Below, piece by piece: positions 8,719-62,706 of a stretch of DNA of 64,000 nucleotides. Position 1 is the stretch's first letter; the number at the start of each line of letters is the position of its first letter. This stretch comes from a phage. The DNA is taken from sequence record PX393110.1. One strand, 5' to 3'. The position numbers and the translations under genes are program-made. The notes under the pieces were generated by a model, which made no database searches, was not told where the DNA came from, and was given only the letters and a program-made list of their open reading frames with translations.

Positions 8719-9429
8719 ATGTATAAGGTAACTAATAAGTCCGAGTACACTGTTCAAGCTAACCTGTCCGCAGACGGTCCGGTAAGCATCGCTCCTAAAG
8801 AGAGTCTGACCATTCGTAACCCGTCTCGCGATTTCGTTAAAGAGATCGGTCGCGTATCTAACCTGCTTTCCTATACGGAAGTAAGTGGTGATGCGTCTGG
8901 CGATCAGACCGATAAAGACGAAGTGGTCGCAGCTGAGCCTGAACATCCGAACTCTCTGGACAAAGAGCCAGGTACTGTTATCCAGGGTACTGCTCTGACC
9001 AAAGAAGAAATTAACACTGCTGCTGAGCGCTCTGATCATAAGATCAATGACAAAGTGCCCGATACTGCGGTAGTTGGCGCTAACCAGGATGCTGCTGCAC
9101 CTAAAACTGGTGGCGAGTCTAACGTCGCTCCTAAAGAAGTGACCGACGCAGAATTAAATAACGCTGGCGCTGCTGCTGGTGGTGAAGATCAGGGTGCTGG
9201 TAATGCGGAAGATGCTTCTGCAGATAAATCCGACTCTGGCATCCGTCAGTTTACCGGTGAAGAACCCACCAAATCTGAAGAAGATGGCGAAGGTGAGCAG
9301 TACACTCGCGAAGAGCTGGAATCTACTCACTGGGCCACCGTTAAGAGCATCGCGGAATCTAACGGTATTGATTACACCAACAAAGGTGAAGCGATCACCG
9401 CTATTCTGGATGCTAAAGTAACCAAGTAA
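8719..9429 (+). CDS. head-associated protein with C-terminal Rho-N/SAP-like motif (possible decoration protein)
   Basis: 236 aa; acidic low-complexity middle; C-terminal helix-hairpin resembling Rho N-terminal domain; own promoter-like TTGACA-N17-TAAATT upstream. Confidence 0.45.
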   Translation: MYKVTNKSEYTVQANLSADGPVSIAPKESLTIRNPSRDFVKEIGRVSNLLSYTEVSGDASGDQTDKDEVVAAEPEHPNSLDKEPGTVIQGTALTKEEINTAAERSDHKINDKVPDTAVVGANQDAAAPKTGGESNVAPKEVTDAELNNAGAAAGGEDQGAGNAEDASADKSDSGIRQFTGEEPTKSEEDGEGEQYTREELESTHWATVKSIAESNGIDYTNKGEAITAILDAKVTK

Positions 9430-28951: not shown

Positions 28952-31936
28952 ATGTCTTATAATCCGATCTTAGAAGGATCAACCTGGCCGGAGACTATTC
29001 GTCGCTTAGAAAAGACGGATAGGGCGGAAGGTGGGCCACTAGTTACTAATTCTGAGGATGAACCAGTATCTGGACATATTAATCATCCAATAACTCAGTT
29101 AGCTACCAGAACTTCCATTTTAAAAAAGTATAATTTATCGATAATTAATAACACTAAAGAACAGTGGAAATTATTACTCGGTGACTTAGGACTAACTCTT
29201 GTTGGTACTTTTGAAGAAGGCGCTACTACTAACAGCAAGACTGATGCTGTTTGGCATATTGCTGGTGGTCAGTGTTACGTGTGGGGTGGTTTACTCCCTA
29301 AGACTGTATATGCTAACTCCACACCGCTAACTACTGGTGGTATCTCTGCTGATGCTTGGGTTAGTATTGGTGATGCCGCACTGCGAGGGCAAATATCAGA
29401 CCCGGACGGTGCGACAAAATACCCTGAATTGCAGATTGCTAGATGGCGTGACACTTTTGACCCTCGCGGTTGGGGAGCTAAAGGTGATGGATTAGTTGAT
29501 GATACTGTGGCTCTTAATAATCTGTTAAACGCTGCGCCAGTGGGTCAGAAAATTAATGGTAACGGTAGAACCTATAAAGTATCTGTGCTTCCAGATATTA
29601 GCCGATTCGTCAACACTCGTTTCGTTTATGAGCGTATTCCTGGCCAGACGCTTTATTATGTGTCTGACGAGTTTGTTCAGGGTGAGTTAATTAAAATAAC
29701 CGACACGCCTTATTACAATGCCTGGCCGCAGGATAAAGCGTTCGTTTACGACGATGTTATTTACTGTCCGTTCATGGCTAGCGATCGGCACGGGGTTAGC
29801 AGGCTGCATGTATCCTGGGTTCGCTCAGGTGATGACGGACAGACCTGGACGACCCCGGAGTGGCTAACCGACCTGCACCCTAATTACCCGACAGTTAACT
29901 ATCACTGTATGAGTATGGGTGTGATGCGCAACCGCCTATTTGCGATGATTGAAACCCGTACATTGGCATCTAACGCACTGGTGACTTGCGAGTTATGGGA
30001 TCGGCCCATGTCCCGTAACTACCATCCGACAGGTGGCATCACAAAAGCCGCCAACCAGCCTGTGGCTGTAATTACCATCCCTGAACACGGTCTTTTTGCT
30101 GGGGATTTTGTTAACTTCTCAAACTCTGGGGTGACTGGCGTTTCAGGGAATATGACTGTAACTTCAGTTATTGACCGCAACACGTTTACAGTTACCACGC
30201 CAAATCAACAAGCATTCGACCAAAATAACTCTACCAGCCGCTGGCATATGGGGACATCGTTCCATCAGTCACCATGGCGTAAAACCAGCCTTGGATTGAT
30301 CCCCATGGTTACCGAGGTTCACAGTTTTACCGCCATCAATAACGATTCATTCATGATGGGATATCACCAGGGTGATGTTGCTCCGCGTGAAGTCGGTATG
30401 TTGTATTTTCCGGATGCGTTCAACAATCCTGGGCTTTATCAGAAACGGCATATTCCTGCTGAATATGAGCCAGATGCGGCAGAACCCTGCGTTAAGTATT
30501 TTGACGGTGTTCTTTATGTTGTAACCCGTGGAACCAGGTCTGATCGTCTTGGTAGTTCTCTGCATCGCAGTAGCGACCTGGGGATTACCTGGCAATCACT
30601 GAGGTTTCCGAATAACGTCCACCACTCTACCCTGCCATTCGCTAAGGTAGGAAACGAACTGATTCTTTTCGGCACCGAACGCGCCGACAACGAGTGGGAA
30701 GCAAACGCACCGGATCAACGATATTTCAGTTCTTACCCACGGACGTTCTACACGAGAGTGAACCTCGACACCTGGAACCTGAATAATACTCAGTGGGTAA
30801 ATATCACTGATCAGATTTATCAGGGTGGTATTGTTAACTCTGGCGTCGGTGTCGGATCGGTCGTCGTGAAAGATAGTTATATCTATTACATGTTCGGTGG
30901 GGAAGACCATCTGAACCCATGGACATATGGAGATAACTTAGAGAAAGACCCATTCAAATCAGACGGTCATCCCTCAGATTTGTATTGTTACAAAATGCAG
31001 ATCGGTCCAGACAATCGTGTTTCTCGTGATTTCAGGTACGGTGCTGTACCTGACAGAGCGGTTCCAGTGTTTTTTGATACGAATGGAATTCGCACTGTTC
31101 CTGCGCCTATGGAGTTCACCGGTGATTTAGGGTTAGGTCATGTGACCATTAGAGCCAGCACCAGTAATAACGTTCGCTCTGAAGTTTTAATGGAAGGTGA
31201 GTATGGGTTTATTGGGAAATCTGTACCTACTAATAACCCAGCAGGACAGCGCACCATATTTTGCGGTGGCGAAGGAACCAGTTCTTCTACTGGTGCACAG
31301 ATTACGCTTTATGGTGCTAATAACACAGCTTCTCGCAGGATAGTTTACAACGGAGCTGAGCATCTGTTCCAGACTGCTGACGTTAAGCCTTATAACGATA
31401 ACGCGATTGCGCTCGGTGGGCCTAGCAACCGATTCACTACTGCATACCTCGGAAGCAACCCTATTGTTACTTCTAACGGGGAGAAGAAAACAGAGCCGGT
31501 ATTTTTTGACGATGCTTTTTTAGATGCTTGGGGCGACGTTCATTACATCATGTACCAGTGGTTGGATTCTGTACACTTGAAAGGAAATGACGCTAGAATT
31601 CATTTTGGCGTAATTGCTCAGCAGATCCGCGATGTATTCATTGCTCACGGTCTGATGGATGAGAATAGCACGGATTGCCGCTATGCCGTTCTGTGTTACG
31701 ACAAATATCCTCGCATGACAGACATGGTGTTCTCTCACAATGAAATCGTTGAACACACTGACGAGGAGGGTAATGTAACTACCACGGAAGAACCTGTATA
31801 CACCGAGGTGGTTATTCACGAAGAGGGTGAGGAGTGGGGTGTGCGGCCTGATGGAATTTTCTTTGCTGAGGCAGCATTCCAGAGAAGAAGACTGGAGAGA
31901 ATCGAAGCCAGACTTTCCGATCTTGAAAAGAAATAG
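28952..31936 (+). CDS. sialidase-like tailspike (endosialidase-like) with C-terminal intramolecular chaperone domain
   Basis: 994 aa; two Asp-box motifs (SGDDGQTW, SSDLGITW); GAKGDG motif; C-terminal S74-like chaperone region; distinct codon usage. Confidence 0.7.
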   Translation: MSYNPILEGSTWPETIRRLEKTDRAEGGPLVTNSEDEPVSGHINHPITQLATRTSILKKYNLSIINNTKEQWKLLLGDLGLTLVGTFEEGATTNSKTDAVWHIAGGQCYVWGGLLPKTVYANSTPLTTGGISADAWVSIGDAALRGQISDPDGATKYPELQIARWRDTFDPRGWGAKGDGLVDDTVALNNLLNAAPVGQKINGNGRTYKVSVLPDISRFVNTRFVYERIPGQTLYYVSDEFVQGELIKITDTPYYNAWPQDKAFVYDDVIYCPFMASDRHGVSRLHVSWVRSGDDGQTWTTPEWLTDLHPNYPTVNYHCMSMGVMRNRLFAMIETRTLASNALVTCELWDRPMSRNYHPTGGITKAANQPVAVITIPEHGLFAGDFVNFSNSGVTGVSGNMTVTSVIDRNTFTVTTPNQQAFDQNNSTSRWHMGTSFHQSPWRKTSLGLIPMVTEVHSFTAINNDSFMMGYHQGDVAPREVGMLYFPDAFNNPGLYQKRHIPAEYEPDAAEPCVKYFDGVLYVVTRGTRSDRLGSSLHRSSDLGITWQSLRFPNNVHHSTLPFAKVGNELILFGTERADNEWEANAPDQRYFSSYPRTFYTRVNLDTWNLNNTQWVNITDQIYQGGIVNSGVGVGSVVVKDSYIYYMFGGEDHLNPWTYGDNLEKDPFKSDGHPSDLYCYKMQIGPDNRVSRDFRYGAVPDRAVPVFFDTNGIRTVPAPMEFTGDLGLGHVTIRASTSNNVRSEVLMEGEYGFIGKSVPTNNPAGQRTIFCGGEGTSSSTGAQITLYGANNTASRRIVYNGAEHLFQTADVKPYNDNAIALGGPSNRFTTAYLGSNPIVTSNGEKKTEPVFFDDAFLDAWGDVHYIMYQWLDSVHLKGNDARIHFGVIAQQIRDVFIAHGLMDENSTDCRYAVLCYDKYPRMTDMVFSHNEIVEHTDEEGNVTTTEEPVYTEVVIHEEGEEWGVRPDGIFFAEAAFQRRRLERIEARLSDLEKK

Positions 31937-42267: not shown

Positions 42268-42821
42268 CAGATACTCCGTACAAATAATTCCCGGAATGGT
42301 TTAATTACCTTCTCTACTTCAGCATCCATCTTGGTTTCTGACTTACCAGATAAGATATTGAAAAGAGATACACGAACGGCCTCCCGAACCGACTCTTGAG
42401 TCATATCGACCTTGCCTTCATACGCTGAATAAATAGTCTGGCAGTTGCTAAGTAAAAATACTAGCTCTACCGCCTGATGAACGACTTCTTGATACTGCTG
42501 GTCGCGCTCGATAGCTTCGTTCATCTTAGGAGTGTGTGGATTATCGCAGATTTCCCAGGTCTTTACGATATCAGGATTAGCGAATACATCGGACGATTTA
42601 ATACCTATCGACACTTTAAGTAGACGGTGCTTAATACCGTTATTGGTAATAGTCAGATCGTGCATAGCATGACGAAGAGCTTGCTCGAATTCAAAGCTAG
42701 ACTCTCGGACTACTATATCATAGCTCTCAGCCTGGTCGATAGGACGGACTGTTAGAACGAGTACTGCTGTACCTCCCAACATACCGATTAGGTTGTCTAT
42801 ATCCATATTACTCAAAGTCAT
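42267..42821 (-). CDS. hypothetical protein
   Basis: 184 aa ORF, overlapping start/stop with neighbours. Confidence 0.45.
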   Translation of the reverse strand: MTLSNMDIDNLIGMLGGTAVLVLTVRPIDQAESYDIVVRESSFEFEQALRHAMHDLTITNNGIKHRLLKVSIGIKSSDVFANPDIVKTWEICDNPHTPKMNEAIERDQQYQEVVHQAVELVFLLSNCQTIYSAYEGKVDMTQESVREAVRVSLFNILSGKSETKMDAEVEKVIKPFRELFVRSI

Positions 42822-43180
42822 TTCTTTACCTTCTTATAGAACTTGTGGTCGCCTATTCTGGCTGTCATTCTATAGCCCTTCCAGTTAGGCCTAACCTTTA
42901 CATTATGAAAGTGAGTAGCCCCGAATGTGGGATCTTCACTGTATTTAACTCTTGCCGCAATATGAATAGCAGATGCCTTAGATTTAGGATCTTTCATATT
43001 CTGGTAAGAGATGTGACGGTACCACGGAAAGGTATTCCTGTTTTTAACTACCTTACATGGGCTTATACCGTATTTCTTCGCTCGGTTGAGTACCACGTGG
43101 GCTACAGCTAACTGCCCACGTTCCGACTCTCCCCTGGCCTCATAGTAGACGACCATAGCTACGCAATCGGCAGAAGTCAT
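42818..43180 (-). CDS. SleB-like cell wall hydrolase
   Basis: VVYYEARGESERGQLAVAHVVLNR matches hydrolase_2/SleB signature. Confidence 0.6.
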   Translation of the reverse strand: MTSADCVAMVVYYEARGESERGQLAVAHVVLNRAKKYGISPCKVVKNRNTFPWYRHISYQNMKDPKSKASAIHIAARVKYSEDPTFGATHFHNVKVRPNWKGYRMTARIGDHKFYKKVKK

Positions 43181-43211
43181 AGTTCATTCCAAATTAATCA
43201 TCCGTGACGGA

Positions 43212-43589
43212 TTACAGAGATTTCTCTGTGGTGGGCTCTTCCAGTAGCCCACCCAGAGCTGAGAATACCATGTTCACCGAGTCGTCAATCTCTTTGATTA
43301 ACGATTGGAGATTATTGGTATCTGCGACCATGCCTCTGACCTGGTCGCTAATATCAGCCGCACCCAACTTAGTACCTTCACCAGCCAGACTGTCGATTAA
43401 ACGAACTTTGGCCTTATTTAACTGGTCGATTTTATCCTGGATAGCAGCTTTACGCTGATTACATGCCAGAACTATGATTTGTTTTAAATCAACCTGGCTA
43501 GCATAGCTCTCGCGGAAGCGCTTTACCAGATTAGCTTCGTCGATTACCGGCAGAGCCTCTGGATGAGGTCCGTTGAATGCGTTGTACAT
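43212..43589 (-). CDS. hypothetical protein
   Basis: 125 aa ORF. Confidence 0.45.
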   Translation of the reverse strand: MYNAFNGPHPEALPVIDEANLVKRFRESYASQVDLKQIIVLACNQRKAAIQDKIDQLNKAKVRLIDSLAGEGTKLGAADISDQVRGMVADTNNLQSLIKEIDDSVNMVFSALGGLLEEPTTEKSL

Positions 43590-43601
43590 AATTTCTCCTA
43601 A

Positions 43602-44225
43602 TTAGAAACGATCGCGACCTATGATTGGTGCGACTGGTTTAAAGTCAGTCTGGTCGTAACCTTTGTAAAGGTCGTAGCCACCACCAGCAACCTCAGTAAA
43701 GTAAATCTGACCGATGCGCATGTTAGAACGCAGTCGGATAGTGTTAGGGCTTAGGTTAACAATCTCTAGAGTAAATGCTCCCTTGAATCCAAAGTCCCCG
43801 AAACCTGCACTGACATGGCTCAGTATTCCCAGACGACCCATAGTGCTGCGACCGTCGTAATGCTGACAGAATGCCACACCACGGTCTACAGTGCTGTTAC
43901 GGTATCGTGGGTCATAATGCTCGAACCACTTCTCAGGCAACATGGTAGTACAGTCGATACGTTCAGATGCTGAGCCTAAGATGAACTCCCCAGGTTTAAG
44001 ATCGTAGTATAGTGCCTCTACCTCGCGATACTCCGGAAGAGTACATGGTTTATAGGGATCTACTACATGGCCATCAGGCATCTTTTGAGGAACCAGGAAG
44101 AACGGAGCTAAGCGTACATCTACACTATTCTGTCCGATTCGTGGTTCCTGATTGTCCAGATAACTGTGATAGGTCCATAATCCTTGAGTAATTGCCTGCT
44201 CAATATAAGATTTACCAAGGATCAT
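43602..44225 (-). CDS. dCTP deaminase-like protein (dUTPase superfamily)
   Basis: 207 aa; size and motif layout of Dcd family. Confidence 0.55.
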   Translation of the reverse strand: MILGKSYIEQAITQGLWTYHSYLDNQEPRIGQNSVDVRLAPFFLVPQKMPDGHVVDPYKPCTLPEYREVEALYYDLKPGEFILGSASERIDCTTMLPEKWFEHYDPRYRNSTVDRGVAFCQHYDGRSTMGRLGILSHVSAGFGDFGFKGAFTLEIVNLSPNTIRLRSNMRIGQIYFTEVAGGGYDLYKGYDQTDFKPVAPIIGRDRF

Positions 44226-44427
44226 TACGGATGCTCCAGCATGTTCTTAACAGATTCTTCATCTGTAGCTTCTACAGTAGCATTATTATTATTATTATTA
44301 TTATTATTCTTGAATGTGCCCCAGATATCATCAGACACGATCATAGTCTTGGGAGCTAAGTGCTCCGAACGAATAACCGTAATCTGGTTACGATTAAGAT
44401 CCTTAGTTAGTTGCTCAATATCCATCA
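44225..44427 (-). CDS. small protein with poly-Asn tract
   Basis: ATG at 44425-44427 with GAGGA RBS; contains 9 consecutive Asn from (ATT)9. Confidence 0.4.
44282..44308. repeat. (ATT)9 trinucleotide microsatellite
   Basis: 27 nt perfect ATT repeat read directly. Confidence 0.95.
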
Positions 44428-44455
44428 TATTCCTCGGTTCTATGGTAGAATAACA

Positions 44456-44479
44456 TTGACCTCTCCGCAAAGAGGTCAA
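44456..44479 (-). terminator. hairpin downstream of dUTPase gene
   Basis: 9-bp stem TTGACCTCT/AGAGGTCAA; U-tract weak. Confidence 0.35.
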
Positions 44480-44510
44480 TAGTAATTACCGTAGTCTAAC
44501 TACCCCAGGA

Positions 44511-44981
44511 TTACTTAATCCCGGAATGGCCAAACCCACCGTCGCCACGTTCAGAAACATCAGAGAATTTATCCACAAGCTGGAGCTCTGGATGGATAAC
44601 GGGAAGAAACACCATTTGAGCGATACGGTCGCCGTGGTTAATAACGAAAGATTCGTTACTACGGTTCCACACAGACACCATCAGTTCTCCTTGATAGCCG
44701 GAGTCGATAAGACCAACCAAGTTACCCAGTACGATGCCATTTTTATGGCCGAGGCCGCTGCGGGGAAGAATCACAGAAGCGATGTTCGGATCGCCGATGT
44801 TGATCGCTAGACCGGTAGGGACCAGGATAGTTTCGCCAGGATTTACAGCGATTTTATCGATTTCGTCAGTCTTAATCATCGCACGAAGATCAAGACCAGC
44901 ATCACCAGCTTTAGCGTATTTCGGTAACTCCAGAGAGTCGTCCCAGTTAATAGTTTTCTTTACTTGAACTACGGTCATCAT
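44511..44981 (-). CDS. dut: dUTP diphosphatase
   Basis: 156 aa; [39 protein letters not shown] motifs of trimeric dUTPases. Confidence 0.85.
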
Positions 44982-45358
44982 GATGCCCTTTTGTACTGTT
45001 TAATGAATGCTGCGCAGATGCTGGTGAAGAGGTGATCTTTGACTCGATGCTCTTCCGGCAACCGTGAATATGGAACCATACACGGGTGCGTCTTAGCTGC
45101 GAGATCTTTGATTTCTCCATACTTCCAGCCCTGCTCCTTTTTAGTTTTAACCCAGAATTCATGGGACTCTTCTGGGCTGATACGGTTATTGTGTAAGCAG
45201 TTATACGCTCCATCAATAGCCGACTGTTTTATTTCATCGGATGTTGCTTCCCAGCTTAATTGGGTGAAGTCTCCGATAGAATGGCAGTATGCACGATTAG
45301 CTTCGTGACACACCTTAGCCACCATCAATACGATTTCTTCTCGGGTCATATGAGACAT
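44978..45358 (-). CDS. RyR-domain protein
   Basis: [20 protein letters not shown]...[20 protein letters not shown] resembles RyR repeat. Confidence 0.5.
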
Positions 45359-45582
45359 TATTTACCCTTGTGACGTTGCTTATTAACCTTACGGCCTTTA
45401 GCCTTCTTAGCCGCACGCTTTAATGCAGATGCTGTAGTAGTCTTAGGGCAGCTTACCTTGGTACAGGCGCGACGGAATCCGTCATAGCCTTTAGCAGACA
45501 CTGCTGGGGTGGGCCACATATGACCTAATCCAGCCAGAACCATACCGATACCGCTTAACAAACCAATACGACGTGATTGCAT
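45358..45582 (-). CDS. small membrane-anchored basic protein
   Basis: 74 aa; N-terminal hydrophobic helix, Lys/Arg-rich C-terminus. Confidence 0.45.
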   Translation of the reverse strand: MQSRRIGLLSGIGMVLAGLGHMWPTPAVSAKGYDGFRRACTKVSCPKTTTASALKRAAKKAKGRKVNKQRHKGK

Positions 45583-45602
45583 AGAGATTTCCTTTCCAAC
45601 AG

Positions 45603-45634
45603 TTTAACAGCCTTTGGAGGCTACGAAAGAGCGG
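45603..45634 (-). promoter_or_regulatory. conserved promoter-like motif
   Basis: TTTAACAGCCTTTGGAGGCTACGAAAGAGCGG, about 20 nt upstream of start at 45582. Confidence 0.5.
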
Positions 45635-45944
45635 AATCTTCGTCAGGTAATGAATTAACGAAGTCAGCTATAACTTGAGCATGACATGGTAACGGTAAGC
45701 AGGAGCACCCTAAAGTCTTACCCTTAAGAGTCCGTAAGTAGGAGATGCTTATGTGGCCATCTTTTACTTGCTGGTGGAACCATAGTCTGTATTTCGCGAT
45801 GGCTAATGTTCGGGAACCTACGTTAATAGCGTTAGGTAAATCTTTATGGCTCCACTTATTCCCGAATATAGTACCTCTCCCAACATATAAATCGTAGTTA
45901 GGATTGGTACGTATATTAACCACCCGACAAAGCTTACTCTCCAT
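45621..45944 (-). CDS. DUF4326-like protein
   Basis: YVGRG...GNKW...GKTLGCSCLPLPCHAQV layout recalled from DUF4326. Confidence 0.5.
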   Translation of the reverse strand: MESKLCRVVNIRTNPNYDLYVGRGTIFGNKWSHKDLPNAINVGSRTLAIAKYRLWFHQQVKDGHISISYLRTLKGKTLGCSCLPLPCHAQVIADFVNSLPDEDSALS

Positions 45945-46647
45945 CTTCCACAGAGTTACCCTGCATAGCAATCATGGTATTCACCTCGTGCTCCAGATCC
46001 TGTAACTCTTTTACACGATTGATGGTGCGAACCCAAGTCTTAGCTTCCAGCATCGCATCGAACAATGCATGGTGATCAGACATAGACTCGTGCTGGCTAC
46101 TCAGTTCTTCTTTAATCATGCGACGATCATCGAATGAGATCAGCTGCAGACTAGCCAGAGTGCGGTAATCTCGATTCATCCAGTGTAGGAACGGGGTCTT
46201 ACGTCCTTTAGCCTTAAAGTACCAATCCAGGAATCCCTGGTCGAACTCTGGTGCGTTACCGATGAAGTTCAACATCTGGCAACCAGGATCCTGTAGTACC
46301 TTAGCTACGTACTCTTCGATGATATCCAGAGCTTCGTCAACAGATACTGGATTAGCATATGCAGCATCACGGACGGGTTTCGGGAGAGTGTTGAGCCATT
46401 CAACTACGTTAGGGTCAGACTTCATACCCAGAGCCAGCGACTCTTCTCGATCAATAGTGAAGTAGACGTGGGAGTAGTGATCAGGACCAACCGTCACCAT
46501 ACCTACAGATAGAACTACCCCAGGCTCTTTAAAATCGAGATACTCGGTCTCGATGTCAATTGCGCAGTGGTAGGAGTCGTGATATGACAGGAATCGGTTA
46601 AACAGTTTATTCGGAGCCAGATGGTGTGGCATCATCTTAGTAGACAT
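45934..46647 (-). CDS. 3'-5' exonuclease, DEDDh (DnaQ/RNase T-like)
   Basis: AIDIETE (Exo I), FDQGFL (Exo II), HHALFDA (Exo III) motifs. Confidence 0.7.
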   Translation of the reverse strand: MSTKMMPHHLAPNKLFNRFLSYHDSYHCAIDIETEYLDFKEPGVVLSVGMVTVGPDHYSHVYFTIDREESLALGMKSDPNVVEWLNTLPKPVRDAAYANPVSVDEALDIIEEYVAKVLQDPGCQMLNFIGNAPEFDQGFLDWYFKAKGRKTPFLHWMNRDYRTLASLQLISFDDRRMIKEELSSQHESMSDHHALFDAMLEAKTWVRTINRVKELQDLEHEVNTMIAMQGNSVEDGE

Positions 46648-47351: not shown

Positions 47352-48011
47352 TTAGTCTTCTTCGCCCCACTCATCGTCGTAGGCCTGCTTAGGGGTCTTA
47401 CCTTCATCGTAATCATCCCGCCAGGCTTCCGCATCAGCAGCGCTACCGCCACGAGACTGAGCGTATTGGTGCAGCAGTTTATGCCACTCCGCAAACGATC
47501 CTGTCTCCTTGGTCATTTGTTCCATAACTAACTCCTCCCGAAGTTTCATCAGTAATCGTCCGAGCATATTAATACCAGTGAGGACGGACTTGTACTCCTC
47601 ACGAGTCATACCCCAGAAGGAATCTCCGTGGGTATTTCCTTCGACCAGCTCCTTAGGCCAAGTATCGGTCAATTTTTGAGCTAGCTCCCCACCTTTCGCG
47701 AATTTAATCCGGAGTAGGTGTTCCATCACATCTACTCTCTGTTCCTTCCACGATTCAGTAATGGGCAGCTTACGTCCATATCTCTTGGCCTCACCAGGAG
47801 TATGAAGTCTAGCTATGATAAGACGATGGGCTAGTGATGGAGACTTAGATGCTTGATAGGCATGCTCCACACTAGGGTAAGTAAGGGAGGGAAGAGTCTC
47901 GTTCCCGTAAGGATTCTTATCCTCAATAGGAACAGGATAAAAGTTAGATAGGAATCGGTACTCTCCGATAAACTCCAGAATAGAGTTCTTGTCGGTCCAG
48001 ATCCGCATCAT
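47352..48011 (-). CDS. NADAR (YbiA-like) domain protein, putative ADP-ribosyl N-glycosidase
   Basis: YRFLSNFYP, VEHAYQASK, KRYGRK...WKEQRVDVMEHLLRIKF, LVEGN..D.FWG colinear with E. coli YbiA. Confidence 0.75.
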   Translation of the reverse strand: MMRIWTDKNSILEFIGEYRFLSNFYPVPIEDKNPYGNETLPSLTYPSVEHAYQASKSPSLAHRLIIARLHTPGEAKRYGRKLPITESWKEQRVDVMEHLLRIKFAKGGELAQKLTDTWPKELVEGNTHGDSFWGMTREEYKSVLTGINMLGRLLMKLREELVMEQMTKETGSFAEWHKLLHQYAQSRGGSAADAEAWRDDYDEGKTPKQAYDDEWGEED

Positions 48012-53259: not shown

Positions 53260-53550
53260 TTAGTCATCCAGTCTGATTACATTACCAGCTAACCATCCTC
53301 CGCATACTGCTCCTGTTACTTTGGTGCCAGTAGGACTAGTTGCTGAAAATTTAGTGGAGAACATACCATTCTTGGAGCACTTAAACCAGGATCTCCCATG
53401 TATCGTTACATTGGTGAATCCACTGTTATTTAGGGTTTTAGTTGCTCCAGATTCGTCGTAACACCTGCTTAAAATGAAGATGCTTAAAATGAAGATTATA
53501 ACGATCACCATAATTACCGGTAGAAACCCACCAATAGCTGATAATTTCAT
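53260..53550 (-). CDS. membrane-anchored/secreted hypothetical protein
   Basis: ATG at 53548-53550 with GGGAG RBS; N-terminal hydrophobic helix. Confidence 0.45.
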   Translation of the reverse strand: MKLSAIGGFLPVIMVIVIIFILSIFILSRCYDESGATKTLNNSGFTNVTIHGRSWFKCSKNGMFSTKFSATSPTGTKVTGAVCGGWLAGNVIRLDD

Positions 53551-55896: not shown

Positions 55897-56526
55897 TTAT
55901 TTAGGGATCCATGAATACTTTAAATTCCATGGCCTAGGGGTACCATGGAAACAAACTACTGCAACCCCATTAGGCACCGACCCGTTTCCGGTAGACCTGT
56001 GACAGTAATGCTCCTGGTCAGGACCTACTACTGATACCTTGTAGGAACAGAATTTACCTGGGTAGAGATCTTGTATGCGAGGTACTCCATTAAAGAATGG
56101 GCAGATAAACTCCTGATCACCACCTACAGAGTGATTAGCCATGAATCTATCTGGACTAACTATCCAAGCATTCCAGATGCGCTCAGCTAAGATAGGCTCA
56201 ACACGCATCACGCTACTGTTAACCATCCCAGTATGGTACCAGTCTCGGAGAATAGTTGATTCGTCACAGTTCAGCAGGAATGTGATATCGTCGATAATTG
56301 CTGTATCTAAATCGAAGAACACGAATGGCTCCTGGATAGTGAATAGCTCCATCTTACTCCACCAGCCAGGATAATCATGCTTCATAGGTATCCACTCAAC
56401 TCCTTCGATAGGCTCTTTAGAGATACATGCATATCTTGTACCTTCTGGGAGTTGTCTACCTACCCATTTAACGTGATCTTCTGTGAAGTCCTTACCCTTA
56501 CGAAATACCGTAACCACTAGCGACAT
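55897..56526 (-). CDS. putative glycosyltransferase (DxD-containing)
   Basis: 209 aa; FDLDTAIIDD possible DxD motif; in glycosyltransferase cluster. Confidence 0.4.
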   Translation of the reverse strand: MSLVVTVFRKGKDFTEDHVKWVGRQLPEGTRYACISKEPIEGVEWIPMKHDYPGWWSKMELFTIQEPFVFFDLDTAIIDDITFLLNCDESTILRDWYHTGMVNSSVMRVEPILAERIWNAWIVSPDRFMANHSVGGDQEFICPFFNGVPRIQDLYPGKFCSYKVSVVGPDQEHYCHRSTGNGSVPNGVAVVCFHGTPRPWNLKYSWIPK

Positions 56527-57485
56527 TTAGTCTTCTCCATATGTTTAAATCCCTGGATCATGTTCTTAGCCACGTTATCCCAGGTACAATCTTTAACCTT
56601 ATCAGCAATCTTGGTTCTGTTAAGCTTAAGGAGTATTTCGTCCCAGTTTATCTTAGAGCCAACTATGTGATGCTCCACAGATTCCAGACGATCTTTAGGA
56701 ATAAGCCCTTCCTTAGTTACTATCAGAGCTCCGCACCGAGCCGCTTCCAGGACAGTAAGGCCTAACGACTCCTTATGAGTAACTATGAAGATGTCGCAGC
56801 ATCTGATTAATGCAGCGAACTCCTGACTGCTTACTCCTCCACGACGATACTCCTCAACACTTATATTCTCCTCGTCGATAACGCATAATCCATTATCGGT
56901 AAGAGTGTAAGATACGTGAGGAACCGGAATATGCTTAAGGTTCATCATCATGGTTAGGGAGTAATCGAAGTCCGACAGGTCAAATAGCGGATGGTCTACG
57001 AATATCCTAAGTACACCATCCGACATCTTCTCTGGGTAGAATAGCTTATCATCAGCTGCCCACCCTACCTGCCAGTTATTATCCAGATGCCTTTTCAGAC
57101 GACTCGGATTGTCTAAGTACTTATAGGTATCGTCCCGAAGAGTGAAAGTTACGTCTACCTGTTTACAGTCTAGCATCGAACCATCATAGATATGGGTAAC
57201 TAATCCCTTAAAGTGCTTCTTAAGGTATTCTCCTATTTCTAGAGGAATCTGAGTAAACGGACGTACTCCCACATATAAGATATGATCGCACTTCTCTTCC
57301 CGAGCTATTTCTAATACTTGATCAGCATAGACATGAGGATTAACCGAATCGTGGTACTCTGGCCATAATACTAACTCTACTCCATTAGCCTCCAGAGCGC
57401 CTCGGAGATGATATTTCCACATGGTACTGAAGTTAGTTATCTGATGTGAACTACCAGGACAATTTGCTATATACAGTAACTTCAT
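56517..57485 (-). CDS. GT-B fold glycosyltransferase (GT4-like)
   Basis: 322 aa; ESLGLTVLEAARCGALIV matches the E-x7-E motif. Confidence 0.65.
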   Translation of the reverse strand: MKLLYIANCPGSSHQITNFSTMWKYHLRGALEANGVELVLWPEYHDSVNPHVYADQVLEIAREEKCDHILYVGVRPFTQIPLEIGEYLKKHFKGLVTHIYDGSMLDCKQVDVTFTLRDDTYKYLDNPSRLKRHLDNNWQVGWAADDKLFYPEKMSDGVLRIFVDHPLFDLSDFDYSLTMMMNLKHIPVPHVSYTLTDNGLCVIDEENISVEEYRRGGVSSQEFAALIRCCDIFIVTHKESLGLTVLEAARCGALIVTKEGLIPKDRLESVEHHIVGSKINWDEILLKLNRTKIADKVKDCTWDNVAKNMIQGFKHMEKTKCR

Positions 57486-59670: not shown

Positions 59671-59925
59671 TCACTGGTTCAGAACTGCCACGATCTTTTC
59701 TGCCACCTGCTCCAGAGTATCGTCGCTATCATAGTCGAAGTCTGGAATACTGTCTTCCATACCCAGTTCATCTTCAACACGCATGATGATCTCCACTTCA
59801 TCCAGAGAATCTGCACCTAACTGCTCACCGGTAGTAGTTTCAGTTACTTCCAGAATATCAACCATCATGATGTCAGCTACTGCAGATCGCAGTGCATCTT
59901 TAACCTGTTCCAAAGTTACAGACAT
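59671..59925 (-). CDS. acyl carrier protein homolog
   Basis: 84 aa acidic; LGADSLDEVEIIMRVEDELG matches ACP phosphopantetheine-attachment motif; start shares one nt with ligase stop. Confidence 0.75.
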   Translation of the reverse strand: MSVTLEQVKDALRSAVADIMMVDILEVTETTTGEQLGADSLDEVEIIMRVEDELGMEDSIPDFDYDSDDTLEQVAEKIVAVLNQ

Positions 59926-61868
59926 TATTCAGCTCCAATGATTTTACGGAATTGATCTTCGGTAACGATCTTGGTACCCTTAGCTTCGGCAGCCTTAAAC
60001 TTACTGGACTGACTTGGTTTATCGCATACCAGATATTCTGCGTCGCCGATACCGACTTCGACTACGCCATATTTGATCCAGGAGTTAACCAGTTCGCTAC
60101 GAGGCTTACTAAGCTTACCAGTTAAGCAGATCTTGAACTTTCCTTCCGGAAGCGGTTCCTCTACCTTAGAGGCCACCCAGTTCAGAGGAAGATTCAGCAC
60201 CTTCAGGATTACTTCCTGATTCTCTACAATCTTCTTAGCTACGGAACCCATGCATGCATCATAGATTGCCTTACAGATTTTGTAGTCCTCGGTATTGACC
60301 TGGATACCGTCATTAACCATGTCGTGGAAGCTATTGTTACGCAATACACGAATCATCTGGTCGCGAGTCACCGCAGTGGCAATACGCACTCCTGTTGCAT
60401 AACCAAGGCCATCCGTCCAGGTACAGGTCAGCATGTGGTCCATAGAGATAGGACGATCCTTCATATTGAAGAAGGACTGACGAGTAAGCTGGAGAGGGCC
60501 ATCGTACATCTCTACCATACTGAATACTGGATGAGATGGACCAGTCTCGATGATATCGTTCAACATGGCAACATCATCTAGTTTAGCCTGCTCGGCAAAC
60601 TTGTTGATATTCGTCCCACCGAGACCCTTAGGAGCGAAGTCACGGATTATCGTACGAATAACCATCGGGTCTAACTTAGTCTTGATGCGAATATGCACGC
60701 CATCCCAGAAAGTACGTACCCCATCGACGAATTCAGGAATTACCGCAGTGACGGGTTCCACGACTTCTTCGATATGAGGAATTACCTCGTTACGGCGACT
60801 GATCTTGATCTTAGCACCAGGTCCGATACCAGCACTCTTGATGTACTCAGCATTCCATCCGGATGCATAAGTTACATTAACTCCACTCATGTCTACCGTC
60901 TCGAACTCAACAGTAGGCACGACTCGGCCGTAACCACTAACTACCCAGTGTACCTTAACCACGGTAGTGTCATAGAATGCTGATTGGTACTTGATCTTAT
61001 AGTGGACAGTATTCTTGCCCAGCATATTCTCATCCCAGTCAACATTCAGAGATCCCAGAACTACGCCATCCAACAGGTAGTTGCAGACCGGATCTTCGCG
61101 GAACTTAGATGGTGGGTTAGCCACTAGCCAAGTATTGACATAACCAGCAGGAAGAACGAAGTACTTAACTACTTTGAACCCAGCCTTACTTAAACATAGT
61201 AGCAGCTGGTTGTAGTCATCCATCCATGTCTCGTGATCCACATCCTCGTAGAATGCAGTTACCGAATATGCAACCACATCCAGCAGTTCCATTAATGCAG
61301 GATCACTGTATTTAGCCAGAGCAATACCAGAAGCAGCATTACGCTGGTTACTGTACTCGTGGCTGATCCGCTCGAACTTATCATCGGGAATAACGATTTC
61401 GCAGCGGACTTCTTTAATACCTTTAGGAACCTGGCGAGGAAACTCGGCACACTCCAGACTCTTCGTGATGTCCAGACCAGTGACGCCGTCGTGACGAGTT
61501 AAGCCACGGACGAAGTTACCGTCGTAGTCGTAATACAGAACTACCGAGATGCCGTCCAGTTTAGCCGAAGCGACGAATCCCTTAACTTCTTCGTGACCAT
61601 GGAGGAAGTTAAATCCCTCTTCCACAGCACCGATCTTAACCTGGTCAAGACCACCCACGAATGAACCATGTGGGCACTTAGCCAGATGTTCAGCAGCTTC
61701 GGTTACTCCCCAGCCTGGGGTAGTGAGGAGTGGGTTAGTAGGATCCAGCTCAGCTAATTTCTCGGTAAGAGCATCGAACTCTTCGTCCGTAATAATGGGC
61801 TGGTCACCATTATAATATGCATTAGCCGCATTCTTAATTTGCTCTATCAGAGCAGCGACTTTTTCCAT
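59925..61868 (-). CDS. ligA: NAD-dependent DNA ligase
   Basis: 647 aa; KLDG adenylation motif in context colinear with E. coli LigA; C-terminal BRCT-like region. Confidence 0.85.
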   Translation of the reverse strand: MEKVAALIEQIKNAANAYYNGDQPIITDEEFDALTEKLAELDPTNPLLTTPGWGVTEAAEHLAKCPHGSFVGGLDQVKIGAVEEGFNFLHGHEEVKGFVASAKLDGISVVLYYDYDGNFVRGLTRHDGVTGLDITKSLECAEFPRQVPKGIKEVRCEIVIPDDKFERISHEYSNQRNAASGIALAKYSDPALMELLDVVAYSVTAFYEDVDHETWMDDYNQLLLCLSKAGFKVVKYFVLPAGYVNTWLVANPPSKFREDPVCNYLLDGVVLGSLNVDWDENMLGKNTVHYKIKYQSAFYDTTVVKVHWVVSGYGRVVPTVEFETVDMSGVNVTYASGWNAEYIKSAGIGPGAKIKISRRNEVIPHIEEVVEPVTAVIPEFVDGVRTFWDGVHIRIKTKLDPMVIRTIIRDFAPKGLGGTNINKFAEQAKLDDVAMLNDIIETGPSHPVFSMVEMYDGPLQLTRQSFFNMKDRPISMDHMLTCTWTDGLGYATGVRIATAVTRDQMIRVLRNNSFHDMVNDGIQVNTEDYKICKAIYDACMGSVAKKIVENQEVILKVLNLPLNWVASKVEEPLPEGKFKICLTGKLSKPRSELVNSWIKYGVVEVGIGDAEYLVCDKPSQSSKFKAAEAKGTKIVTEDQFRKIIGAE

Positions 61869-61898
61869 CTTTGTTATTCCTTACGGTTGGATTGACAC

Positions 61899-61930
61899 TT
61901 TAACAGCCTTTTAGCACCCTAAAAGAGCGG
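61899..61930 (-). promoter_or_regulatory. conserved promoter-like motif
   Basis: TTTAACAGCCTTTTAGCACCCTAAAAGAGCGG, 30 nt upstream of ligase start. Confidence 0.5.
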
Positions 61931-61932
61931 AA

Positions 61933-62706
61933 TTAGCGATTCTCAGGTTCTACGTATTCCAGACCAAGCAGCTGATACAGTTCTTCCTCAGAGGAATTAG
62001 TATCCACACGTTCACCGGTCTCTACATTAAACAGGCCATACTCATTAAGAGTCATGCCCATACGCTTAGCCACCGAACGCATGTGTACGTTATTCTGCAT
62101 TGATCCTGTGGAGTGAAGTAAGCACGCGTTCCAGGATTCTTCTGGACAGATCTTGATATCAAATTCCATACCAGTATTAGTATGGACGAATCGGATCTTT
62201 TTATCCTTACCATACAGTTCCTCCATACCGGTAAGACGGAAAGCATGGCGAACTATTTCTGGAGGGAAGGTAGTAAGCAGGTCTACGTCGCGAATCCACA
62301 TCTTACCACGACGTACCGAACCAGCTGTAGAGATACGACCAGAGCTACCCTCGGCAAGACTCAGTTTGGTCACTTCCGTTAGGTAGGACTCAATGATATC
62401 CTTAACCTCAGTGGAGTAAGCAACACGACCTTCTGGGACTTTAGACATAAGTTCAATGAACTTAGGAGTCATGGTGCCATACTTAGCGAAGGCTTCTAAC
62501 TCGCTAGCAATCCCAGCACCTATCCATGGGATTGTAGTGAAGTTCATCTGGGAAGTTACACCATACGGGTAATCATCCAAGGAACGGGCTGCACGATCAT
62601 ACGCCCTAACATGCCACACGGAATCACCATGGGCTTTCTTAAGCTCGGCTATTTGGCGAAGGTGGCGAACAGCATCAATACGGAAGGTCATCCTAACAGG
62701 CTCCAA
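61933..62706 (-). CDS. DNA polymerase X family (Pol beta-like) nucleotidyltransferase
   Basis: GSVRRGKMWIRDVDLL nucleotidyltransferase motif; C-terminal region colinear with Pol beta thumb. Confidence 0.7.
   Translation of the reverse strand: MEPVRMTFRIDAVRHLRQIAELKKAHGDSVWHVRAYDRAARSLDDYPYGVTSQMNFTTIPWIGAGIASELEAFAKYGTMTPKFIELMSKVPEGRVAYSTEVKDIIESYLTEVTKLSLAEGSSGRISTAGSVRRGKMWIRDVDLLTTFPPEIVRHAFRLTGMEELYGKDKKIRFVHTNTGMEFDIKICPEESWNACLLHSTGSMQNNVHMRSVAKRMGMTLNEYGLFNVETGERVDTNSSEEELYQLLGLEYVEPENR

Follow-up and report, generated by a model that had tools for sequence, protein, structure and literature searches.

A perfect (ATT)9 microsatellite lies inside a small minus-strand gene of the 64-kb stretch of phage DNA that was analysed (hereafter the window). 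The neighbours of this small ORF are nucleotide-metabolism genes. The features of the locus are as follows:

43602..44225, minus strand: dCTP-deaminase-like (DCD-like) gene, 207 aa, downstream of the small ORF; match to Pfam DCD (PF22769, E = 9.5e-24)
44223..44227, minus strand: TAATG stop/start overlap from the small ORF to the DCD-like gene; nucleotides invariant in relatives
44228..44425, minus strand: small ORF, 66 aa, stop codon at 44225..44227, alternative ATG at 44428; recognised by orthologues, dN/dS and PHROG 23599
44234..44237, minus strand: GGAG box of the DCD-like gene, within the last codons of the small ORF
44264..44320, minus strand: hypervariable linker that holds the repeat, from the invariant Trp35 codon to a conserved V-E; bounds approximate, the low end perhaps overshooting by ~9 nt, since a count of 15 codons on from Trp35 leads to 44273
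44282..44308, minus strand: (AAT)9 on the coding strand, (ATT)9 on the plus strand, encoding Asn40-Asn48 of the small protein
44431..44435, minus strand: Shine-Dalgarno-like GAGGA, conserved in IME392 and EP_H11
44454..44481, minus strand: 12-bp stem-loop in the gap between the dUTPase gene and the small ORF; conserved, terminator-like, with a weak U-tail
44511..44981, minus strand: dUTPase gene, 156 aa, upstream of the small ORF; match to Pfam dUTPase (PF00692, E = 1.9e-35)

The first-pass annotation had described nine uninterrupted ATT units giving nine Asn in a minus-strand ORF, and this was confirmed both by direct reading and by TRF (period 3, 9.0 copies, 100% matches). It had also given the ORF as 44225..44427, of which the stop end holds and the start does not. 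The entry holding the tract in the list of open reading frames runs from 44225 to 44479 on the minus strand, and the first ATG within it is at 44428. The second ATG, at 44425, is likely to be the true start, since GAGGA lies 5 nt ahead of it and only 2 nt ahead of ATG 44428, since one relative (L012) reads ATA ATG at this position, and since the recorded 60/61-aa relatives begin at MDIEQ.

That the tract sits within a genuine protein-coding gene, as first proposed, was upheld by the low dN/dS of the blocks flanking it, the conserved ribosome binding site (RBS) and the stop/start overlap. The flanking blocks gave a dN/dS of ~0-0.2 (36 allele pairs; window against 8 other distinct DNA alleles), and against L012 the window showed 18.5 synonymous and 6.5 non-synonymous differences across them. 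This pattern of substitution indicates that the small ORF is a real gene under purifying selection. Orthologues of its product were found as P0001-P0004 and as EP_H11 protein WBU87718.1. The N-terminal core of the small protein (residues ~14-44) also resembles PHROG 23599, a phage family without known function, and the resemblance stops at the variable linker and poly-Asn. The alignment was reported for residues 15-64 against profile positions 6-54 of 60 (E = 7.1e-6, 26.9 bits), and the homologues P0001 and P0008 match the same profile (E = 4e-7 for P0008). Searches of the small protein against Pfam (E <= 10) and, by profile, against PDB returned no meaningful match. A profile search of 1.84 billion representatives returned P0002, the distant 59-aa homologue P0008, three long repeat proteins (P0005-P0007) and nothing more, and a profile scan of metagenome_contigs for the small protein added one distant homologue, on L137. 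The gene adjoining one distant homologue is presumably NinB-like, judged from sequence alone. The term 'early protein' in the first-pass annotation is a guess; the context it could draw on is that of nucleotide-metabolism neighbours and this presumed NinB-like gene. With the profile of the small protein the three repeat proteins reached E = 1e-6 to 1e-21, for example through TVTVQQSEHLSP set against ITVIRSEHLAP. These scores are sums of many short repeated chance matches; P0005-P0007 were rejected as homologues, and the case is a warning on E-values inflated by repeats.

On the downstream side, the TAATG overlap is predicted from its layout to couple translation of the small ORF to that of the DCD-like gene. 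The DCD-like protein shares 95.7% amino acid identity with the 'putative dCTP deaminase' of IME392 and 38.8% with YerA41_068. A small ORF occupies the same position upstream of the DCD-like gene in YerA41 (YerA41_067); it was considered as a counterpart and set aside, there being no detectable similarity. Acinetobacter phage Ab1-TPeters has no small ORF at the corresponding position. On the upstream side, the region of the stem-loop (96 nt) folds at -31.3 kcal/mol (z = -3.7), and the substitutions seen in IME392 and EP_H11 fall in loop bases only. The stem-loop occurs once in the window; termination, RNA processing and regulation are all possible roles for it. A search of 43000..46000 against Rfam gave no match, and no tRNA genes were found in the 64-kb window. 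Promoter-like matches are present inside the repeat itself; these are artefacts of AT richness.

The window aligns to Escherichia phage vB_EcoM_IME392 (MH719082) at 90.9-97.2% identity block by block over ~44 kb, and EP_H11 (OP688485) is also related. The window is thereby placed among the E. coli phages that form a group with vB_EcoM_IME392 and EP_H11. The phage collection held no relative closer than IME392, and an exact look-up of the small protein, the DCD-like protein and the dUTPase of the window in a large assembly collection returned no record. Both IME392 and EP_H11 are among the phages with a YerA41-like DNA polymerase in a 2025 paper, which also counts this dCTP deaminase in a possible route to thymidine hypermodification derived from 5-hydroxymethyl-dU (PMC12686479). 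The window carries genes for a dUTPase, a DCD-like protein, a glycosyltransferase, an NAD-dependent ligase and a PolX-like protein at 43602..44981 (minus strand), 56517..57485 and 59925..62706 (minus strand). As context to the finding, the phage group is suspected to carry hypermodified thymidine.

Several further observations concern the genome as a whole. The segment 30002..31944 (plus strand), in an ORF for a 994-aa tail protein (28952..31936), has ~88% nucleotide identity to endosialidase/tailspike genes. Its matches are to unrelated K1-capsule-specific phages (UE-S5a and K1F-like phages at ~81%), which suggests a horizontally exchanged K1-specific tailspike module. Around the small ORF, the nucleotide identity profile of 42818..45358 against three metagenomic contigs (L003, L010 and L139) is mosaic. 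The RyR-domain, 125-aa and hydrolase genes are 95-99% identical to those of the three contigs, the DCD-like gene merely 86-90% identical in all three, and the dUTPase gene 88-89% identical in L010 and L139 and 98% in L003. This mosaic suggests that recombination has occurred in the vicinity of the nucleotide-metabolism genes. Small accessory genes encoding RyR (PF02026), DUF4326 and NADAR (PF08719) proteins are clustered at 44978..45358, 45621..45971 and 47352..48011 (minus strand), and a gene for an Rv2179c-like 3'-5' exonuclease (45934..46647) adjoins the cluster. NADAR and DUF4326 are linked to ADP-ribose metabolism.

Within the window the tract stands by itself. It is the sole microsatellite of at least 12 nt with a period of 1-6, and the remaining trinucleotide tandem runs comprise 897 of 2 units and 19 of 3 units. 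When the window was simulated 200 times under a second-order Markov model, runs extended to at most 3 units in 144 simulations, 4 units in 55 and 5 units in one; a tract of nine units lies far beyond chance expectation. It also yields the only homo-amino-acid run longer than 4 residues in a crude gene set of ~19,600 codons. All nine of its codons are AAT, in a window with 45.6% GC whose genes use AAT and AAC almost equally (538:525). Nine Asn in 66 aa with ordinary flanks fall short of the tens of Q/N-rich residues of a prion-like domain. The TRF score of the tract is 54; the top-scoring tandem repeat of the window, at 62, is a perfect 15-nt tandem duplication at 53466..53496 (TGCTTAAAATGAAGA, 2.1 copies).

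Related loci were compared at the site of the repeat. Seventeen were available: IME392 and EP_H11, ten contigs encoding P0001-P0004, and five reached through the cluster of the DCD-like protein. The tract has 9 units in the window and is absent from 16 of the 17 as read in DNA or protein; for the 17th (L141) its absence is deduced from an identical 68-aa gene call. At 13 of the 17 loci (IME392, EP_H11, the metagenomic contigs L003-L012, and L139) the site reads N-[H/Y]-N(-N). Site codons were read in 12 of these 13, L139 having been read as protein, and take the forms AAT CAT AAT GCT, AAT CAT AAT AAC GTT, AAC CAT AAT AAC GTT and AAT TAT AAC TCT. The other four loci (L138 and L140-L142) belong to a more distant lineage and have a different linker without an Asn run, as seen in the translated and aligned L138, L140 and L142.

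In the closest relatives the sequence around the site is GG. GC. TTC AAG AAT CAT AAT GCT GCC, and in the window it is GGC ACA TTC AAG (AAT)9 GCT ACT. The two differ by an 18-nt insertion of pure (AAT)6 and one C-to-A change. The window is longer by 18 nt than IME392 and the other 60-aa alleles, and by 15 nt than EP_H11 and the other 61-aa alleles. Over the ~44 kb aligned with IME392 there are 16 small indels, among which the 18-nt insertion is the largest and the others are no longer than 8 nt. Two further indels of in-frame size, at 9166 and 17345, consist of GGCGCT and GGC absent from the window and fall in structural-gene territory. A DNA pattern of conserved flanks and a variable gap found no further alleles in viral_contigs or metagenome_contigs, and protein-based searches for the locus, using the small protein and the DCD-like protein in viral_contigs and also covering genome_contigs, found nothing. 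Comparison of repeat number among isolates, which had been put forward as a check on instability, thus gave presence or absence only. Because there is no allelic series over the 17 related loci, the tract is, on the alleles read, a private expansion of one genome and not a recurrently varying site.

The segment that received the expansion differs from the rest of the protein. Close relatives are near-invariant up to Trp35 and again from V-E on, and variation in both length and sequence is confined to the stretch between the two. In codon and protein alignments this linker is 15 codons long in the window, against 9-10 codons for relatives. In the distant homologues (P0008, the L137 protein and the L138-type allele) the N-terminal core VIR..HLAP.TM.VSDDI[WFY] is kept and the tails are unrelated. 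The L138-type allele retains the terminal MLEHP, five residues whose codons include the RBS and start of the DCD-like gene. An AF2 model of the small protein, built on a 5-sequence alignment, is of low confidence (mean pLDDT 56.7); it shows the tract as coil, preceded by a helix (residues 32-41) and followed by a second one near the C-terminus (56-64), and pLDDT falls below 50 over residues 43-50. The description 'disordered linker' comes mainly from sequence variability, the AF2 coil lending weak support. Judged by the alignments, the tract evidently occupies a weakly constrained, change-tolerant segment. Across lineages the small protein of the window is only 29% identical to that of the L138 lineage (L138:995-1201, L140 and L142 compared), and the DCD-like proteins of the two lineages share one cluster built at 90% identity. 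By these comparisons the rate of evolution of the small protein is far above that of the genes next to it.

Taken together, we consider it probable that the tract is a recent, lineage-private, in-frame expansion by slippage in a tolerant linker, and that it is neutral or nearly so. The ancestor would have carried AAG AAT CAT AAT GCT (K-N-H-N-A), a form still present in the closest relatives. One C-to-A change, from CAT to AAT, would then have yielded (AAT)3, and slipped-strand mispairing with a net gain of six units would have produced (AAT)9; this is the minimal path to an allele known from one genome only. The outcome would be six extra Asn that separate the conserved N-terminal core, ITVIRSEHLAPKTMIVSDDIW, from the acidic tail, VEATDEESVKNMLEHP, conserved at the C-terminus. 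The insertion leaves the reading frame, the embedded downstream RBS and the TAATG coupling intact, and for that reason would be neutral or nearly so. We infer the order of the mutational steps, and the neutrality, from this comparison. A gain of 6 residues in a 60-aa protein is a 10% change in length, and a lengthening of this size could matter functionally in so small a protein.

The locus has the marks of a slippage microsatellite: identical codons, a proto-repeat (AAT CAT AAT) in the closest relatives, a difference of whole units and a weakly constrained segment. Copies made by slippage start out identical and remain so only until synonymous changes accumulate. The all-AAT purity of the tract, together with its absence from every relative, therefore suggests that the expansion is recent and followed the divergence from the IME392 lineage. 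The first-pass annotation had called the tract prone to slipped-strand mispairing. This holds for the type of sequence and for the orthologues, which differ from the window by 18 nt (the closest relatives) or 15 nt of pure AAT repeat; current instability we infer from the tract itself, which at nine pure units is probably more mutable in length than ordinary sequence. The accompanying statement that whole-unit (3-nt) changes keep frame is correct, as the tract is in frame within the ORF. Changes of this kind would merely lengthen or shorten a linker, with no on/off switching.

The label of contingency locus fares less well, as a 3-nt in-frame unit can switch neither this gene nor the coupled gene downstream. 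Nevertheless, the tract might be a hypermutable length-variation locus of contingency type, whose protein variants selection would retain for bet-hedging. Slippage is mechanistically plausible for a run of nine pure units, and the tract is already six units off its closest relatives. The small protein is 29% identical across lineages with conserved neighbours, a pattern known for phage-host conflict proteins. Moreover, contingency loci have recently been reported in phages, namely homopolymer simple sequence repeats (SSRs) in agt and rIIA of T2/T4 (Gomez, Barrick & Waters 2025 preprint, PMC12633550). Those loci, however, have 1-nt units that cause reversible frameshifts, with demonstrated phenotypes and measured heterogeneity (PMC12633550). 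They resemble the present tract in being SSRs inside a phage ORF and open to polymerase slippage, and differ from it in that the 3-nt unit here always keeps the frame. At 27 nt the tract is long enough to slip, yet its slippage switches neither frame nor promoter spacing.

Classical contingency loci act by reversible frameshift or promoter spacing, and poly-G tracts are found in the receptor-binding genes of Campylobacter phages. Another parallel in effect is offered by bacterial surface proteins, in which in-frame variation in repeat number changes length without phase-switching. As here, the frame is kept and the effect would be graded and not on/off. However, the repeats of surface proteins usually have longer units, lie in surface-exposed antigens and form clear allelic series between strains, whereas the present protein has 66 aa and no sign of surface exposure, and a single expanded allele is known. 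Against a maintained device also stand the lack of an allelic series (16 of the 17 related loci read without any repeat tract, L141 by deduction) and the lack of a known phenotype. A conserved device is impossible, because the tract is missing from every other member of the family. The poorly conserved segment and the nine identical codons make a recent tolerated event a better fit than a maintained device, and we regard the contingency reading as unlikely.

Selection could also have acted by fixing a longer poly-Asn spacer for the geometry or flexibility of core and acidic tail, for example towards a variant host partner, with the repeat as no more than the mutational means. The segment does differ between lineages (9, 10 and 15 codons, and wholly different in L138-type alleles), a sign that evolution acts on it, but an unconstrained segment would vary equally. 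The purity of the codons (9/9 AAT against usage of ~50:50) shows no age, and selection on a poly-Asn peptide is disfavoured because it would be indifferent to the synonymous codon. Nor has such an extension recurred independently in other lineages. Fixation of the longer spacer by selection is accordingly quite unlikely.

A more elaborate form of the length-variation idea, which we hold to be very unlikely, would make the tract an in-frame 'length dial' of very high mutability, set in a rapidly evolving accessory protein of phages suspected of hypermodified thymidine. Were it true, the number of Asn codons would often rise and fall, adjusting either the small protein or the access of Hfq or RNase to the mRNA; the affected mRNA would lie just upstream of the DCD-like gene, which supplies dU to the modification pathway. 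Unusual slippage behaviour of the YerA41-like DNA polymerase on a template with modified T in each base pair might likewise underlie the expansion.

A role at the level of RNA or DNA, in which (AAU)9 alters mRNA stability or downstream translation or the 27-bp pure A/T tract acts in the DNA, draws on the A-R-N rule for binding at the distal face of Hfq (PMC3936774). Every triplet of (AAU)9 conforms to that rule. In the transcript the tract would be an AU-rich segment without structure, 54-81 nt ahead of the dCTP-deaminase start, and the genes are laid out like an operon with coupled translation. However, it lies within a translated ORF, where ribosomes would clear a bound protein, and being missing in all relatives it is not part of a conserved regulation. 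The region gave no match to Rfam, and the promoter-like hexamers are trivial consequences of AT richness. We consider such a role extremely unlikely. A sequencing, assembly or laboratory-passage artefact is hardly credible: the tract is known from a single genome, and its group is suspected of hypermodified thymidine, which disturbs sequencing (PMC12686479), with T in every base pair of the tract, but a 27-nt repeat is far below any read length and is not something that assemblers invent, the insertion, cleanly flanked, keeps the frame of a constrained gene exactly, and a mutation derived from passage would still be a real slippage event.

The preferred reading, a recent slippage expansion in a tolerant linker, makes this an ordinary type of event, a coding microsatellite giving a homo-amino-acid run, in a new place. 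Like other coding trinucleotide microsatellites, the tract consists of tandem identical codons in frame, lies in a non-conserved segment and has orthologues with a short proto-repeat. Poly-Asn runs from slippage are familiar in AT-rich genomes such as Plasmodium and Dictyostelium. In contrast to those genomes, that of the present phage has 45.6% GC and no other such tract, and the event is an isolated one, unusual for a coliphage of this composition. Runs of (ATT)9 or longer occur in more than 120 contigs of IMG/VR, many of them giant-virus MAGs, and SSRs have been catalogued in phage and virus genomes (PMC6426759, PMC3585866).

The significance of the tract as it stands is small, and would become greater only if heterogeneity in length were found together with a phenotype. 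It marks a spot where a small conserved protein tolerates insertions, and it may be used as a strain marker for the isolate. It also offers a simple natural substrate on which the unusual replication apparatus of the IME392/EP_H11 group could be assayed for slippage at trinucleotide repeats. The locus would represent a clean, datable birth of a microsatellite in a lytic coliphage, from a point mutation through (AAT)3 to (AAT)9.
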